Made by a program: the position numbers and the translations under genes
Notes under the pieces: model-generated
What the model saw: the letters and a program-made list of their open reading frames with translations, nothing else
Told to the model about the DNA's origin: nothing
Database searches by the model: none
NCBI GenBank assembly: GCA_900553855.1
Contig: USFG01000003.1
Coordinates: 12,630 to 76,629, forward strand
Length of the DNA stretch: 64,000 nt
DNA from: an uncultured Mycoplasmatota bacterium
GTDB taxonomy: Bacteria > Bacillota_I > Bacilli_A > RF39 > UBA660
Direction of reading: 5' to 3'
In this document: piece by piece, positions 4,633-64,000 of the stretch
Layout of the letters: each line of letters opens with the position of its first letter
Numbering within the stretch: the stretch's first letter is position 1

Positions 4633-4661
4633 TTGTTTATAAATTACACTAATAGTATAAT
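4633..4661 (+). promoter_or_regulatory. Sigma-A-type promoter of the small-peptide (candidate type I toxin) gene, copy 1
   Basis: TTGTTT (4633-4638), a 17-nt spacer, then TATAAT (4656-4661). Confidence 0.4.
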
Positions 4662-4736
4662 ACCAACTAAGGAACAATTAGTTGCTGGGTGTCTATCCTC
4701 ACCTTTTAATAATAATAAGATGAGGAGGTGATGCAT

Positions 4737-4829
4737 ATGAGTAAAAGAAAATTTATTATTAAATTTCTAAGATACTTATGTTTCATTATTCTGTGTATAT
4801 CTATTTTGGTATATATAATAAAAAAATAG
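4737..4829 (+). CDS. 30-aa hydrophobic peptide, candidate type I toxin (copy 1)
   Basis: Not in the ORF track because it is too short. Strong SD GAGGAGG (4722-4728) lies 8 nt before the ATG. The product is MSKRKFIIKFLRYLCFIILCISILVYIIKK: basic N-terminus, single TM helix, KK tail. A homologous locus lies at 63321-63410. Confidence 0.5.
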   Translation: MSKRKFIIKFLRYLCFIILCISILVYIIKK

Positions 4830-4941
4830 ACACTTAATTACCAGGAAAGATAATTAAATGTCTTATCACAATATATAAAGGATAGACATTCAGCATAGCA
4901 AACTAAATGTTCCTTTTTTATTTTATGTAAGTTTTCCTTAC
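4820..4941 (-). ncRNA. Candidate antisense sRNA (antitoxin-like), copy 1
   Basis: Starts about 7 nt downstream of TATTAT. Has a 5' stem-loop GTAAG/CTTAC. Ends at a 13-position hairpin (4828-4840 / 4851-4863, one mismatch) plus a T7 run that overlaps the last codons of the peptide ORF. The 5' ~45 nt are ~90% identical to 63207-63255. Confidence 0.45.
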
Positions 4942-4947
4942 GTATTC

Positions 4948-4976
4948 ATAATAGCATATTTTAAAAAAATTATCAA
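4948..4976 (-). promoter_or_regulatory. Sigma-A-type promoter of antisense sRNA, copy 1
   Basis: On the minus strand: TTGATA (4976-4971), a 17-nt spacer, then TATTAT (4953-4948). Confidence 0.4.
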
Positions 4977-43917: not shown

Positions 43918-45191
43918 TATTTAAACTCCTTAAGTAATGCTTCTATTTCTTTCTTTTCTTCTTCACTTACATTTATATCTTTTTGTTCATTATCAAACCA
44001 AGTTGGTAATTTAACACTCTTATTAATTTCTTTTTTAGGTTTCTTTTTATATTCTTTTTTAGCTTGATTCATTGCTTCTCTGGCTGTTTTAATACCTAGT
44101 CTAGTCCATTGTCCAGCAATAGTTTCAACATAAGCTTTATTAAGTTTATTGTCACTTATTCTTAAAACATAATCGATTAATACGTTAATAACAGCTGGAG
44201 GCATATTTAATTCAAGGGCTAAATATTCTAATAATTTTAAATCTCTAGGGGTAGGATTATTATTTTTATATTTACTTTTTAAGAAATCATATGGGGTTGT
44301 ATTTTCAAAAATATAAACCATTTTACCAGCACTTGATAAATCTCCTTCAGGACTTTTTAAATGTTCAGGCTGTGTTCTATAAATAATTGTAGGTAAACTT
44401 CCACCATTATTATATTCATAATATTTTCTTACTTCTTTAATAAATAAGTCTTTATTAATAAGCCCGTTTTCATCAATTGTTAATCTTAATATTTCACTTA
44501 CTTTAAGTGTATCTAGGTTATAAATGAACGCTAGATTATTAATTAATTCTTTTGTTTTTTTATTAAAAGCATTATTACCTAACACTTTATTAGGAATGCT
44601 TTCTTTTAAAACATCAAAATCAATTAAATTATCTAATTTAGGTTTATTACTATTTTTATTTTTAATATTTTCATTGCTGAAATTATTATAGGCACTGCTT
44701 TTAAAGGTATCATTTAATTTACTAGATATATCTTTATAGTCATCATATTTAAAGTTAACTTTTTTATAAGATTTAATTAAGTTATTATATTCATTTACTC
44801 CTAAGTTATTGTATAACACTATATTTAAAATAGGATGGTTAAAGAATTCATAGGCACTTATTGGAGAATATAGTTCATAGATATAATAATTAATATTATC
44901 TCCTTCTTTATAGTATGTTTTAATTAAACCTAATGCTTCTAAGGCACTTCTGGCTTCTTTAATATCGTTTAAGTTACTTTTTAAAAAGGTCATTAAATGA
45001 TGATGATTATAGGAATCACTAAATGTTAAGGTTCTATCTAAATCGCTCCATAGTGTTAAATATAAACTAATTGCAAGAGGGCCTATTATTGGCTCATATA
45101 AATTAATTAAATTAACTTTATCATTGTCTGTTAATATAGTTTTGTTAACCACTACATAATTATCTGCTGGTAATAAAGTTATCTCATTCAT
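43917..45191 (-). CDS. dnaB: Replication initiation/membrane attachment protein DnaB (DnaD-domain family)
   Basis: LINLYEPIIGPLAISLYLTLWSDLD matches the B. subtilis DnaB N-terminus (LYQPLIGPVAFSLYMTLW). Start at ATG 45191 behind GAAAGAAGG. Confidence 0.85.
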   Translation of the reverse strand: MNEITLLPADNYVVVNKTILTDNDKVNLINLYEPIIGPLAISLYLTLWSDLDRTLTFSDSYNHHHLMTFLKSNLNDIKEARSALEALGLIKTYYKEGDNINYYIYELYSPISAYEFFNHPILNIVLYNNLGVNEYNNLIKSYKKVNFKYDDYKDISSKLNDTFKSSAYNNFSNENIKNKNSNKPKLDNLIDFDVLKESIPNKVLGNNAFNKKTKELINNLAFIYNLDTLKVSEILRLTIDENGLINKDLFIKEVRKYYEYNNGGSLPTIIYRTQPEHLKSPEGDLSSAGKMVYIFENTTPYDFLKSKYKNNNPTPRDLKLLEYLALELNMPPAVINVLIDYVLRISDNKLNKAYVETIAGQWTRLGIKTAREAMNQAKKEYKKKPKKEINKSVKLPTWFDNEQKDINVSEEEKKEIEALLKEFK

Positions 45192-45326
45192 ATGTAAGCC
45201 TTCTTTCAACTTCTATTTTATTATTTAAGTAAACCAAAAGCAAGAATAATATTTAAATAATTTATGTATTTATTAATACTTAACTATTTTAAAATAAAAT
45301 GTTATTATTAATTTAATGGAGGTAGT

Positions 45327-46268
45327 ATGAAATTAGATGTAATAATTCCTTGTTATAATGAAGAAGGAAATATATTAATATTAAACGATAAAATAAAAGA
45401 AGTATTAAATAATATTAATTATCAAATTATATATATAAATGATGGTAGTACGGATAATACTTATAATAAATTGGAAGAAATATATAAACAAGATAAAGAA
45501 CATGTAAAAGTTATTAATTTTAGTCGTAATTTTGGTAAGGATGCTGCTATGTATGCTGGAATGAGATATAGCACTAGTAAATACTGTGCTATTATAGATA
45601 GTGATATGCAACAAAATCCGAAGTATTTATTACAAATGTTAAATTTTTTAGAAAATAATCCAGATTATGATCAAGTATCAATGATTAATAAAGATAGATC
45701 TAATGATAATTTTTTTGTTAAAACTTTAAAGAAGATTTTTTATAAATTTATTAATTTAATAAGTGATACTAACTTTAAAGAAGATGCATCGGATTTTAGG
45801 ATGTTTAGTAAAAGTGCTAAAGAGGCTGTATTAAATTTAGGAGAAATAAATAGATTTTCTAAAGGTATATTTTCTTGGATTGGTTTTAAAACTAAATATT
45901 TAGAATATAAGGTTGAGAAAAGATATTCTGGTACTTCTAAATTTAATTTAACTAATTCTTTTAGATATGCTTTTAATGGCATTGTTAATTTTAGTACTAA
46001 ACCACTTAGACTTGCAACTGTAACTGGGTTACTTACTTCAACAATCTCATTTATTTATTTTATAGTAATGATTTTAGAAACGTTAATTAGGGGTAATAAT
46101 GTACCTGGTTATCCATCTATTATATGTTTAATTTTAATATTAGGCGGAATAAACCTACTTGCAATTGGTATTGTTGGTGAGTATATTTCAAAAATATATT
46201 TAGAAATTAAAAAAAGACCTATATATATTACTAAGAATACATTAGGCTTTGATGAAGATGTTTTATAG
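45327..46268 (+). CDS. GT2 polyprenyl-phosphate glycosyltransferase (GtrB/CsbB-like)
   Basis: Motifs IIPCYNEE, NDGSTDNT, FSRNFGKDAA and DSDMQ, plus two C-terminal TM helices. This is the only sizeable plus-strand gene. Confidence 0.88.
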   Translation: MKLDVIIPCYNEEGNILILNDKIKEVLNNINYQIIYINDGSTDNTYNKLEEIYKQDKEHVKVINFSRNFGKDAAMYAGMRYSTSKYCAIIDSDMQQNPKYLLQMLNFLENNPDYDQVSMINKDRSNDNFFVKTLKKIFYKFINLISDTNFKEDASDFRMFSKSAKEAVLNLGEINRFSKGIFSWIGFKTKYLEYKVEKRYSGTSKFNLTNSFRYAFNGIVNFSTKPLRLATVTGLLTSTISFIYFIVMILETLIRGNNVPGYPSIICLILILGGINLLAIGIVGEYISKIYLEIKKRPIYITKNTLGFDEDVL

Positions 46269-61143: not shown

Positions 61144-62913
61144 TTATAAATCATATTTAATATTTTTATTTTGAATAATTTCTTTTATTTTACTTAAGAA
61201 TTCATCTTTATCTAAAGTAATATTTTCAGTTGTACCATGTAGTCTAACTGTTACAGTATTAGCATCTCTTTCTTTATCTCCAATAATTATTGTATATGGT
61301 ACTTTCTTTGTTTGACTTTCTCTCATTTTATATGTTAGTTTCTCATTGCGATCATCTAATTTTACACGGATGTTTGCTTCTTCTAACATTTTTTCTATTT
61401 CCTTAGCGTATTCTAAATGATATTCATTGTTAACGGGAATAATATTAACTTGTACTGGAGCAAGCCAAACAGGAAGTGCTCCTTTAGTTTCTTCTAGGAT
61501 ATAAGCCATAAAACGATCAAGTGAGCCTAATATTGCACGATGTAATACGACAGGAGTTTTTCTTTCACCATTTTCATCAATATATTTTAGATTAAATTTA
61601 GCTGGTAAACAGAAATCTAATTGACAAGTTGATAATGTATATTCTGCTCCAACTGCTGGTTTAACATTAACATCTAACTTAGGTCCGTAAAAGGCAGCTT
61701 CTCCAATTTCTTCAGTATATTTAATACCTAACTCATTTAAAACTTCTCTAAGTTCATTTTCAGCCTTATTCCACATTTCATCATCTGGATGATACTTTTC
61801 TTTATCTTCAGGATCTCTTAAAGATAATACGCAACGATAATCTTTAATACCAAAATCTTTATAAACATCAAATATTAAATCAACAACACTCTTAAATTCA
61901 GATTTAATTTGATCAGGTGTTACGAAAAGATGGGCATCATTTTGACAAAAGTGTCTTCCTCTTTCAATACCTTTAACTGCTCCACTTGCTTCATATCTAA
62001 AGTCATGAGCAATTTCACCAATACGAATTGGTAAATCTTTATAAGAATGTAATTTATTAGAATAAATCATCATATGGTGAGGACAATTCATTGGTCTTAA
62101 TACGAATGCTTCACCGTCAAGTTCCATAGCTGGAAACATATTTTCTTTGTAATGATCCCAGTGTCCGCTTGTCTTGTATAATTCTACATTACCAACACAT
62201 GGTGTAAGTACATGTAAATATCCTAATTTTCTTTCTTTTTCTTTAATATAATTTTCAAGTTCTTGCCAAATAATATATCCATTAGGTAAAAACATTGGAA
62301 GTCCTCTACCAACTAAATCATCAGACATAAATAAATCTAAATCTTTACCTATTTTACGATGATCTCTTTCTTCAGCATCCTTAAGTTCTTGCATGTAATT
62401 ATCAAGTTCTTCTTCTGTTGGAAAGCATACTCCATAAATTCTTTGAAGCATTTGGTTTTTAGAATCGCCTTTCCAATAAGCACCACTAACTTTTAATAAT
62501 TTAAAATGTTTAAGTAATTTAACAGTTTCAACATGTGGTCCACGGCAAAGGTCGGTAAAATCTCCTTGTGTATACATACTTATTACAGTATTATCTTCGT
62601 CCATACGAGTGATTAAATCTATTTTATATGGATCATCTTTAAATTTTTCTAATGCTTCTTGTTTTGTAATTTCTTCTCTAACAATTCTTTTACCATCTTT
62701 AGCTATTTTTTTCATTTCTTTTTCAATAACTGGTAAATCTTCATTTGTTAATGTTACATCACCTAAATCAATATCGTAGTAGAATCCACTTTCTACAACT
62801 GGTCCAACCCAAAACTTTGCATTTGGATATAAATGTTTAACTGCTTGGGCAAGTAAATGGGCACATGAATGATTCATTACACTTAAATTTTCATTTTCTT
62901 TAATATTTATCAT
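61144..62913 (-). CDS. thrS: Threonine-tRNA ligase (no N-terminal TGS domain)
   Basis: HSCAHLL (editing-domain HxxxH), class II core FRYEASGAVKGIERGRHFCQNDAHLF, and an anticodon-binding C-terminus. Start set at ATG 62913 behind GAAGGAAG, because the track's upstream extension runs through the T-box terminator. Confidence 0.93.
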   Translation of the reverse strand: MINIKENENLSVMNHSCAHLLAQAVKHLYPNAKFWVGPVVESGFYYDIDLGDVTLTNEDLPVIEKEMKKIAKDGKRIVREEITKQEALEKFKDDPYKIDLITRMDEDNTVISMYTQGDFTDLCRGPHVETVKLLKHFKLLKVSGAYWKGDSKNQMLQRIYGVCFPTEEELDNYMQELKDAEERDHRKIGKDLDLFMSDDLVGRGLPMFLPNGYIIWQELENYIKEKERKLGYLHVLTPCVGNVELYKTSGHWDHYKENMFPAMELDGEAFVLRPMNCPHHMMIYSNKLHSYKDLPIRIGEIAHDFRYEASGAVKGIERGRHFCQNDAHLFVTPDQIKSEFKSVVDLIFDVYKDFGIKDYRCVLSLRDPEDKEKYHPDDEMWNKAENELREVLNELGIKYTEEIGEAAFYGPKLDVNVKPAVGAEYTLSTCQLDFCLPAKFNLKYIDENGERKTPVVLHRAILGSLDRFMAYILEETKGALPVWLAPVQVNIIPVNNEYHLEYAKEIEKMLEEANIRVKLDDRNEKLTYKMRESQTKKVPYTIIIGDKERDANTVTVRLHGTTENITLDKDEFLSKIKEIIQNKNIKYDL

Positions 62914-63125
62914 TTTTCTTCCTTCTTTCTTAACAAAAAAAGGATAGTAACAGGCGTCTTTTAAAGACGGTACCATCCTTGATTTATCTTTTTATAATTC
63001 TTAACGGGAATAACTCGGATATTATTATATCTCTCAAAAGGTAGTAATTATTAATAACTCAATAAGTTTTCACCAACCACTTACTCTCTATGATTTGTTA
63101 ACTAATAATCATGTCCTTTATCACT
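62914..63125 (-). promoter_or_regulatory. T-box riboswitch leader of thrS
   Basis: On the minus strand there is a Stem I AGAGAG box (63089-63084) followed by GGTTGGTGAAA, and Thr codons ACU ACC (63045-63040) in the region where a specifier is expected. The T-box sequence is AAGGATGGTACCGTC (about 62987-62966). A terminator hairpin GGATGGTACCGTCTT/AAGACGCCTGTTACTATCC plus T7 spans about 62980-62934. Confidence 0.8.
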
Positions 63126-63183
63126 GATTTCTTAAATAATTTATCACTTTTTATTTATTTTAGCAATATATCTTTCAAACTTA

Positions 63184-63212
63184 TTGTAAAAAAATTTATA
63201 ATTTGGTATTAT
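63184..63212 (+). promoter_or_regulatory. Sigma-A-type promoter of antisense sRNA, copy 2
   Basis: TTGTAA (63184-63189), a 17-nt spacer, then TATTAT (63207-63212). Confidence 0.4.
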
Positions 63213-63219
63213 GAATATG

Positions 63220-63320
63220 TAAGCAAGACTTACATAAAATAAAAAAGGAACATCTAATTTGGAAGTTAAGATGGTTACCTTAAGTAACGTACCAAAACCC
63301 CTTGAGTTTTGGCTTTTTTA
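63220..63320 (+). ncRNA. Candidate antisense sRNA (antitoxin-like), copy 2
   Basis: Has a 5' stem-loop GTAAG/CTTAC followed by AAAAAAGGAACAT, ~90% identical to copy 1. Ends at stem CCAAAAC/GTTTTGG (63292-63298 / 63306-63312) plus T6, directly abutting the stop codon of the convergent peptide ORF. Confidence 0.45.
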
Positions 63321-63410
63321 TTAATTAGCTACTTTAAATAGTAAGATAATTAATAAAATTATTATTATGAATAAATTGATTATTATAAAATATAACATCT
63401 TTTTGCTCAT
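63321..63410 (-). CDS. 29-aa hydrophobic peptide, candidate type I toxin (copy 2)
   Basis: Not in the ORF track. SD GGTGGT (63420-63415) precedes ATG 63410. The product is MSKKMLYFIIINLFIIIILLIILLFKVAN. The promoter TTGACA-N17-TAATAT lies at 63506-63478. Confidence 0.45.
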   Translation of the reverse strand: MSKKMLYFIIINLFIIIILLIILLFKVAN

Positions 63411-63477
63411 AACTACCACCAGCTTTCTTTTGAAATTTAGTGGTAACCACCAAAACAATTAGTTGTTCCTGTTTAAT

Positions 63478-63506
63478 ATATTATCAAACACATATTCGTG
63501 TGTCAA
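63478..63506 (-). promoter_or_regulatory. Sigma-A-type promoter of the small-peptide gene, copy 2
   Basis: On the minus strand: TTGACA (63506-63501), a 17-nt spacer, then TAATAT (63483-63478). Confidence 0.45.
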
Positions 63507-63533
63507 TATTTTAAATACGAAATATCACATTAA

Positions 63534-63989
63534 TTATTTTTTTATTAATGTTTTTTCTTTGTTATAATTTTCTTTAACAGTTTCAAGTATTTCCTTTACT
63601 CTAGAAATAGAGTAAAAATCTAATGTGTTTATATTTAATACTTCTTTTAGAGAGATATTTTCATTTAGTAATACATCGCCATATTTATCTATTTCATCTT
63701 TCATTTCAAAAAACTCATGATATTTTAAGACATCTTTACTTAATTTTAAATCACAAACTAAGTTATATATAAATCTTGCAATGTTTGCACCTGCAATAGC
63801 TAATACAAGACTATAAATTATTTTATAAATATCAGAACGATAGATATAGTATTGTGGGTATGTGCTTAAATTATATGTCATACAAACAGATATAAACGTA
63901 TTTGTTATTAATCTTGAAAAATCATATTTAATTTTTAAAGGTAATCTATTAAATTCGATTGCTTCCCTAGCCATAGCTTGCATAATCAT
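63534..63989 (-). CDS. Hypothetical protein
   Basis: Intact 151-aa ORF with one or two hydrophobic segments. No recognisable family. Confidence 0.4.
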   Translation of the reverse strand: MIMQAMAREAIEFNRLPLKIKYDFSRLITNTFISVCMTYNLSTYPQYYIYRSDIYKIIYSLVLAIAGANIARFIYNLVCDLKLSKDVLKYHEFFEMKDEIDKYGDVLLNENISLKEVLNINTLDFYSISRVKEILETVKENYNKEKTLIKK

Positions 63990-64000
63990 TTCATTTAATA

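Follow-up and report, generated by a model that had tools for sequence, protein, structure and literature searches.

The 64,000-nucleotide (nt) window analysed here, a stretch of contig USFG01000003.1 from an uncultured Mycoplasmatota bacterium of the RF39 lineage, carries near its end a small unit (63195-63506, minus strand) that is very probably a type I toxin-antitoxin-like module of a new family. The minus strand has the layout of a gene for a 29-amino-acid (aa) hydrophobic peptide, and a short antisense RNA gene converges on it from the plus strand. We infer that the two strands are both transcribed here and that the peptide is a toxin which the antisense RNA neutralises. A type I toxin-antitoxin candidate had been proposed at this position in an earlier note on the same DNA, and that reading is supported by an architecture which is kept across the family. 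The unit is referred to as copy 2, because the window contains a second member of the family, copy 1, on the plus strand at 4647-4965 (open reading frame (ORF) MSKRKFIIKFLRYLCFIILCISILVYIIKK), between ftsK and a metallophosphoesterase gene. The two copies agree in layout and, as the earlier note had also described, in part of their sequence: a block of 47 nt (ATGTTCCTTTTTTATTTTATGTAAGTYTTSCTTACRTATTCATAATA, 63207-63253 on the minus strand in copy 2) is almost identical in both, and 0 such matches are expected by chance. A search of the window (positions 1-64000) at maximum sensitivity (nhmmer --max, E <= 10) found no third copy.

A 22-mer from the shared block served as the seed for the family and was scanned over genome contigs, with one genome per species. 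This yielded 72 loci, nearly all from gut metagenome-assembled genomes (MAGs), the titles of which include uncultured Bacilli, Tenericutes, Mycoplasma sp. CAG:472 and Bacillales UBA6331. A profile built from these loci gave 105 matches, 90 of them near full length, and it matches copy 2 at 63494-63195 with E = 5e-52 (nhmmer). The family comprises at least 90 full-length units across 17 gut MAGs, and 87 distinct full units were aligned with MAFFT (alignment A2).

The toxin ORF is present where it had been claimed, at 63410-63321 on the minus strand; it starts with ATG, ends with a stop codon at 63323-63321 and encodes the 29-aa peptide MSKKMLYFIIINLFIIIILLIILLFKVAN. It is preceded by the Shine-Dalgarno (SD) sequence GGTGGT (63415-63420), which is separated from the start codon by four bases in the sequence (AGTT, 63414-63411; 5 nt as tabulated). 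An SD, a start codon and an ORF of 25-44 aa are kept in 85 of the 87 units, and all but two of these 85 ORFs are 25-31 aa long; the start codon is ATG in 67, GTG in 17 and ATA in one. The encoded peptides follow a common plan, in which Met is followed by two to six Lys/Arg-rich residues, a hydrophobic stretch of about 20 residues and, often, a terminal Lys. There are at least eight peptide types that can hardly be aligned to one another, each of them a single hydrophobic helix. The ratio of nonsynonymous to synonymous differences (pN/pS) is 0.06-0.34 in six peptide subfamilies, from which it follows that the ORF is coding. Differences by codon position peak at the third position in four of the six (e.g., 16/16/116), and the 29-aa subfamily to which copy 2 belongs has a pN/pS of 0.23 and codon-position differences of 65/78/211. 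Conservation of the ORF in related copies had been named beforehand as the check to be made, and both the 85 intact units and this pattern of substitution show that the ORF did not arise by chance in AT-rich DNA.

Upstream of the ORF, the promoter scan confirmed the minus-strand promoter TTGACA-N17-TAATAT (63506-63478), in which a TG precedes the -10 element. The -10 is found at the equivalent position in 84 of 85 units, and 39 of these 84 have TGn. The transcript predicted from this promoter (63205-63471, minus strand), the 5' end of which is placed about 7 nt beyond the -10 element, has the leader motif AGGAACA at 63470-63464, as described earlier. Folding of the predicted mRNA (63472-63205) gave -74.9 kcal/mol, compared with -42.2 +/- 4.7 kcal/mol for 200 dinucleotide shuffles (z = -6.96), none of which was as good. 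The minimum free energy (MFE) fold joins the mRNA 5' end to the 3' untranslated region (3'UTR) and the SD to the leader. All three pairings that had been proposed from complementarity are seen in this fold, namely AGGAACA with TGTTCCT (63246-63252), GGTTACC with GGTAACC (63442-63451 and 63270-63279), and GGTGGTTACCAC (63451-63440) with the SD.

Two long-distance helices close the molecule. The first, H1, pairs the mRNA 5' end (AGGAACAACTAATTG, 63456-63470) with the distal 3'UTR (AAATTAGATGTTCCT, 63246-63260), directly before a U-run and within the antisense overlap; it is identified from the fold and from covariation and has 15 bp, seven compensatory pairs and 89.8% of cells paired. The second, H2, pairs a leader segment of the GGTGATTACC type (GGTGGTTACC in copy 2, 63442-63451) with a second 3'UTR segment (GGTAACCATC, 63270-63279) over 10 bp, with seven compensatory pairs and 96.4% of cells paired. 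Together, H1 and H2 amount to 25 bp, of which 14 pairs show compensatory changes. For example, GGAACA/TGTTCC in H1 is replaced by GGAAGC/GCTTCC, and GGTGATTACC/GGTAATCAC in H2 is replaced by GGGTGTCTATCC/GGATAGACA or GGCGCTGCC/GGTAGCGC. RNAalifold, run on the 87-sequence MAFFT alignment, recovered H2 and no other helix; the other helices were set from a reference sequence and checked by pair counts. For these counts, the structure was specified from one reference unit and then counted on A2. Standard pairs occupy 89.9% of cells, compared with 36.6-45.9% when the partners are slid by 1-3 columns. Pairs changed on both sides number 22 (shuffle mean 14.4) and the covariation score is 0.232 (shuffle mean 0.134), and for each of these measures none of 500 shuffles was as high. 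The ratio of G-U to A-C mismatches is 75:7 in H1 and 140:23 in H2, and this excess indicates that the pairing is selected on the mRNA strand as RNA, and not as a DNA inverted repeat. Every one of the 87 units shows the 5'-3' pairing in its own MFE fold.

The 3' part of the H2 5' arm (TTACCAC, to 63440) doubles as an anti-SD, and in the MFE fold of copy 2 the SD pairs with 63445-63440. The resulting helix, H3, has 70.5% of cells paired; it is poorly aligned by MAFFT and so was judged sequence by sequence. At least 60% of the SD is paired in 83 of 85 units, and the probability that the SD is unpaired is 0.017 in copy 2 and 0.09 as the family mean. A further local hairpin, H6 (CATCT...AGATG, 63251-63273, both strands), was assessed by pair counts and overlaps the 3' arms of H1 and H2, to which it is an alternative; it also forms one of the internal hairpins of the predicted antisense RNA. 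All seven of its pairs have changed on both sides and its cells are paired at 94.4% / 82.2%; the strand test is ambiguous (18:30). At two positions of H6 a C-G pair has become U-A, and the leader partners stay G or U, so that they can pair with the old base as well as the new one; this would be expected if both of the alternative structures matter.

Hairpin H5 (ATGTAAG-CAAGA-CTTACAT, 63217-63235, both strands) was found in the folds and by pair counts, with 92.6% of cells paired and no compensatory changes. The antisense RNA begins with this hairpin, and an mRNA that reached so far would form the complementary one. For the mRNA 3' end there are two candidate positions, the U-run 63246-63236 and the far side of the hairpin at 63217; our best guess for the terminator is H6 or H1 before the U-run. 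The H5 stem (ATGTAAG/CTTACAT, A2 columns 326-344) is nearly invariant, and the 5-nt loop varies (TCTTG, TTTTC, TCTTC, TCTTA and others). If the mRNA extends there, its H5 loop is complementary to that of the antisense RNA, and the two could make a copy-specific kissing contact.

On the plus strand, the antisense promoter TTGTAA-N17-TATTAT was confirmed by the promoter scan at 63184-63212, and its -10 element is extended by TGn (TGGTATTAT). A -10 element of the form TANNNT stands at the expected place in all 85 units, 84 of which have the TGn extension, and 67 units have a TTGAAA-like -35 element 17 nt upstream. The -10 hexamer varies (TATTAT, TAATAT, TATAAT, TATATT, TAGTAT, TACAAT) while the -10 form is kept, which fits selection on promoter function. 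This promoter is nearer to the consensus than that of the toxin gene.

The predicted antisense RNA (63219-63319, plus strand, about 100 nt; promoter and terminator scans and fold) ends in an intrinsic terminator, CCAAAAC...GTTTTGG followed by T6 (63292-63319). The terminator abuts the toxin stop codon, in agreement with the earlier description, and its stem at 63292-63312 with the tail CTTTTTT is the only terminator-like site in 62900-64000, a region for which 0.1 is expected in shuffles. The helix beside the stop codon, H4, shows compensatory changes in seven of its nine pairs. Its wobble pairs number three in the mRNA sense versus 42 in the antisense sense, and H4 is therefore the terminator of the plus-strand RNA. 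In its fold, the antisense RNA has a hairpin at the 5' end, then an unpaired A-rich tract that runs up to GGAACA, and after this a pair of small hairpins and the terminator; the 5' hairpin, the A-rich tract and GGAAC constitute the block that is common to all paralogues. No ORF is conserved on the antisense strand across units, and a peptide encoded there was rejected, the longest antisense ORFs being 1-33 aa and not conserved. With its T-run ending at 63319, right at the toxin stop codon, the antisense RNA lies outside the ORF and so is fully complementary to the toxin 3'UTR (about 100 nt). The duplex of cognate antisense RNA and mRNA was calculated at -170 kcal/mol, compared with -55 to -65 kcal/mol for non-cognate combinations of copies 1 and 2. 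Cross-talk between paralogues is possible in this model through the shared block.

Each of seven related MAGs contains 8-15 distinct full units, and more distant MAGs contain 1-3. Units are frequently arranged in tandem, with a spacing of about 375 nt. At the thrS site occupied by copy 2, the window has a single unit; three other contigs, with flanks 92-97% identical to the window, have tandems of three units (L059, 5860-6844; L035, 5916-6893) or two (L071, 6124-6754). The number of units at this fixed site differs, and therefore copy number changes between strains. The window around both copies is 97-99% identical to contigs of two family MAGs. According to the record titles, the sources include humans (Hadza) and the rectum of a water deer, and isolate names suggest rabbit and chicken. 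We suspect that the family MAGs belong to gut Bacilli of the RF39/RFN20 type, lineages whose reported genome size is 1.5-1.9 Mb (PMC7301438). Some units are on contigs titled Muribaculaceae or Clostridia (L006, L010, L054, L065), probably through the way in which the MAGs were binned or labelled and not because these are the true hosts. A locus titled Streptococcus (L053, 2776-3135) lies outside the family and matches the 22-mer by chance.

A number of units are decayed. One has a frameshift (L011, 6790-7051), one has lost its SD or start (L015, 2834-3093), one has ATA in place of ATG (L044, 6078-6349), one has lost the SD hairpin (L060, 3979-4338), and two have had their 5' halves replaced (L051, L056). 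In addition, five loci have a 3' module with no recognisable family toxin upstream (L009, 65-424; L024, 1868-2227; L029, 2541-2900; L042, 61-420; L067, 1358-1717). These contain a terminator-like stem, a GGTA-type segment, a TTCC-T-run block and a hairpin, and L029 also has a hydrophobic toxin-like frame without a clear start. Such loci could represent orphan antitoxins, or else modules whose toxins are of another kind or have diverged greatly.

The explanation that we favour for these features is a type I module that works as follows. The toxin mRNA (minus strand, about 240-265 nt) would encode the 29-aa peptide, a putative single-helix membrane peptide, and fold as a closed rod, in which two stretches of the 3'UTR are paired with the first 15 nt or so of the same molecule (H1) and with part of its leader (H2). 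A local hairpin stacked next to H2 would hide the ribosome-binding site (RBS) and the start codon. Given the 5'-3' lock and the local SD hairpin, we predict a full-length mRNA that is stable but poorly translated. The strong extended -10 promoter on the opposite strand would drive the antisense RNA of about 100 nt, ending at the toxin stop codon, and the 3' strands of H1 and H2 fall precisely within its predicted target. An antisense RNA directed at these strands would therefore carry the same sequence as the mRNA 5' end, and its binding would have to cause the release of that end. By analogy with TxpA/RatA and BsrG/SR4, pairing of the antisense RNA with the mRNA 3'UTR would lead to decay of the duplex (PMC8594479, PMC6733600). 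As in type I systems already characterised, an excess of peptide would damage the membrane (PMC8594479, PMC6733600).

When the 3'UTR was blocked in folding, the mean probability that the SD is unpaired was 0.073, compared with 0.094 unblocked, and the SD became more accessible in 10 units and less accessible in 12. SR4 reportedly tightens the RBS stem, whereas here folding predicts no consistent change at the SD. A BsrG/SR4-like translational effect, with RBS tightening on antisense binding, is therefore unsupported by folding. A different mode of action is conceivable, although we regard it as rather doubtful: the antisense RNA, in which AAGGAACA...GGTNNTTACC equals the mRNA 5' sequence, might act as an antitoxin by strand displacement and not by masking the RBS, evicting the mRNA 5' end from the protective lock and exposing it to 5'-dependent decay of the RNase J/Y type. 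Through the block common to all paralogues, the 8-15 antitoxins of a genome could also neutralise one another's toxins and make up one network instead of separate pairs.

Several points weigh against the toxin-antitoxin interpretation. The SD is predicted to be masked with or without the 3'UTR, so that folding gives no translational effect of antisense binding, and the folding model leaves the route to translation of the peptide unexplained. The mRNA 3' end is uncertain, and the terminator scan gave no canonical G+C-rich site for the minus strand. Because a 22-mer seeded the collection of the family, both its breadth and the apparent invariance of the seed block are biased; copies found by the profile alone deviate from the 22-mer by one or two bases or a short deletion. 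Nine family peptides compared with Pfam and NCBIfam show no homology to any proven toxin. Expression and toxicity are themselves predictions from sequence.

The lack of a match to any toxin family would also suit a benign small membrane protein, the mRNA of which is under the control of a cis-antisense RNA; the architecture would then be real, and the unit would not be a toxin, addiction or stress module. The genomic context points the same way. Genes beside family units are housekeeping genes (thrS, ftsK, miaA, ruvX), and the units are not in recognisable mobile elements; blastn found no family relative in plasmid and phage collections, and viral contigs gave 0 matches to the 22-mer. Even so, we consider a benign protein unlikely, as it is at odds with the presence of 8-15 paralogues in a small genome, with tandem duplication and change of copy number between near-identical strains, and with the existence of pseudogenised copies. 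Several layers of translational masking, and an antisense promoter that is better conserved than the mRNA promoter, also argue against it. Paralogy, tandem arrangement, decayed copies, masking and a strong antisense promoter are typical of type I toxins (T1TAdb, PMC8594479; PMC6733600).

If the unit is a type I module, it might be a diverged member of a described Gram-positive family. Families in which the antisense RNA is on the 3' side are Fst, TxpA, YonT, SprA1, SprG and BsrE/G/H (PMC8594479). The module fits this group by layout, with its convergent antisense RNA on the 3' side as in T1TAdb (PMC8594479), and its peptide is similar in length and hydrophobicity, but it does not qualify as a member of any of these families. 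Nine family peptides searched against Pfam and NCBIfam at E <= 10 gave no toxin model beyond noise and no Fst model; the sole match to a type I toxin model was HokA, at a noise level of 11.7 bits against a cut-off of 89. Ten peptides were looked up as exact sequences in a collection of 15 billion proteins, and none was present. An Rfam scan of the whole window at the gathering threshold gave no match, and a search of both copies by E-value gave noise (E 0.29-7) besides the thrS T-box. None of the Rfam antitoxin families matches, with RsaH and RsaOG appearing at E <= 10 with an E of 4-7. Descent from Fst/RNAII, TxpA/RatA, BsrG-E-H, SprA1 or SprG thus seems very improbable, and the regulatory designs of the better known systems differ from that of the module in ways that add to this view.

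The Bacillus subtilis systems BsrG/SR4, BsrE/SR5 and TxpA/RatA are similar in that a toxin mRNA and an antisense RNA converge and overlap at their 3' ends (PMC8594479). Like the module, they are chromosomal and have a small single-helix hydrophobic peptide and an RBS in a local stem, but there is no similarity of peptide or RNA to them in sequence or profile. In TxpA/RatA, BsrG-E-H and SprG/SprF the antisense overlap enters the ORF (T1TAdb, PMC8594479), whereas here it stops at the stop codon. Unlike the Bacillus systems, the module has a covariation-backed, two-part 5'-3' closing helix of 25 bp, the 3' strands of which are the antisense target.

Fst/RNAII, known from par of pAD1 and from chromosomal homologues in Firmicutes, shares with the module its convergent RNAs, a Firmicute host and an antisense RNA that keeps off the ORF; in both, a helix takes up the mRNA 5' end and a stem-loop the SD. 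Fst toxins have a charged C-terminal tail, whereas the family peptides described here are charged at the N-terminus. The RNAs of Fst interact via complementary 5' repeats outside the overlap (T1TAdb, PMC8594479), unlike those of the module, in which the mRNA 5' leader and the antisense RNA carry sequence of the same sense. An Fst-like 5' interaction was rejected: the antisense RNA paired with the 5' 77 nt of the mRNA at -27.0 kcal/mol, compared with -20.9 +/- 3.8 kcal/mol for shuffles.

A long-distance lock has been described in hok/Sok (plasmid R1, Enterobacteria) and aapA/IsoA (Helicobacter), where a 5'-3' interaction holds the full-length mRNA in a very stable and translationally inert form (PMC6733600). 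The predicted fold of the toxin mRNA has a comparable 5'-3' lock, and multiple chromosomal copies are a feature of both systems (PMC6733600). In hok and aapA, it is the 3' element that serves as the anti-SD, and the antisense RNA targets the 5' region of the message (PMC6733600). The module differs on both counts: its SD is masked locally, by an anti-SD lying upstream, and its antisense RNA covers the 3'UTR only, where it would bind the 3' strands of the lock. The hok and aapA systems are Gram-negative and have no homology to the module.

Finally, a repeat resembling a miniature inverted-repeat transposable element, in which terminal inverted repeats mimic an RNA helix and the ORF and promoters are incidental, would account for a short (about 330 bp), multi-copy, intergenic unit that occurs in tandem arrays and has inverted repeats (the H1 arms) at its ends, but it is extremely improbable, and is in effect excluded by strand-asymmetric covariation and coding constraint: the repeats covary, with 14 compensatory pairs in H1 and H2, rather than stay conserved; the mismatch ratios fit selection on one RNA strand and not on transposase-bound DNA repeats; the ORF is under purifying selection; and homology between copies 1 and 2 stops at the two promoters, with no further terminal repeats beyond.

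Copy 2 is flanked on one side by thrS, whose product matches Pfam tRNA-synt_2b, HGTP_anticodon and tRNA_SAD. The encoded threonyl-tRNA synthetase (61144-62913, minus strand, 589 aa) appears to start at the ATG at 62913 and has no match to an N-terminal TGS domain. The T-box leader of thrS (RF00230, 62949-63133, minus strand) is a neighbour and not part of the module. It scores 52.3 bits (E = 1.7e-10) against a gathering score of 93 and was therefore missed by the whole-window scan at the gathering threshold; its alignment lacks the greater part of Stem II. Since the toxin gene lies immediately upstream of thrS and has the same orientation, any toxin transcript that ran past its 3' end would continue into the T-box leader. 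The antisense -35 element starts at 63184 and the T-box leader at 63133, and the antisense and thrS promoter regions are back-to-back; a weak candidate for the thrS promoter is TTGCTA-17-TAAATT near 63166-63138 (minus strand). On the other flank of copy 2 is a 151-aa ORF with no Pfam match. Over the window as a whole, the minus strand carries 55 of the 57 ORFs that reach 120 aa or more; GC skew is negative in every 2-kb segment except 44001-46000. The G+C content of the window is about 25% and rises to about 35% in two stretches, at 14-16 kb and 34-36 kb, both within long ORFs.

New type I families are not surprising in Firmicutes. A literature search found no paper joining type I toxin-antitoxin systems with RF39 and, among the 12 top-ranked results, none joining them with Tenericutes, Mollicutes or Erysipelotrichia. 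The family described here would add an abundant, previously unannotated type I toxin-antitoxin family to an uncultured gut lineage with reduced genomes, and the fact that its ORFs are missed by gene callers points to a gap in annotation. A complement of 8-15 copies per genome is a large investment, for which phage defence, genome stabilisation and selfish spread are candidate reasons. On the evidence of its predicted RNA structures, the new family merges the 3'-overlapping antisense RNA of Gram-positive systems with a 5'-3' mRNA lock in the style of the Gram-negative hok and AapA systems, two regulatory designs that have so far been described separately. The covariation is strong enough for the direct design of structure-function experiments. 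With its copy number in a reduced genome, its clean covariation and an antisense RNA that mimics the 5' end of its target mRNA, the family should make a good experimental system.

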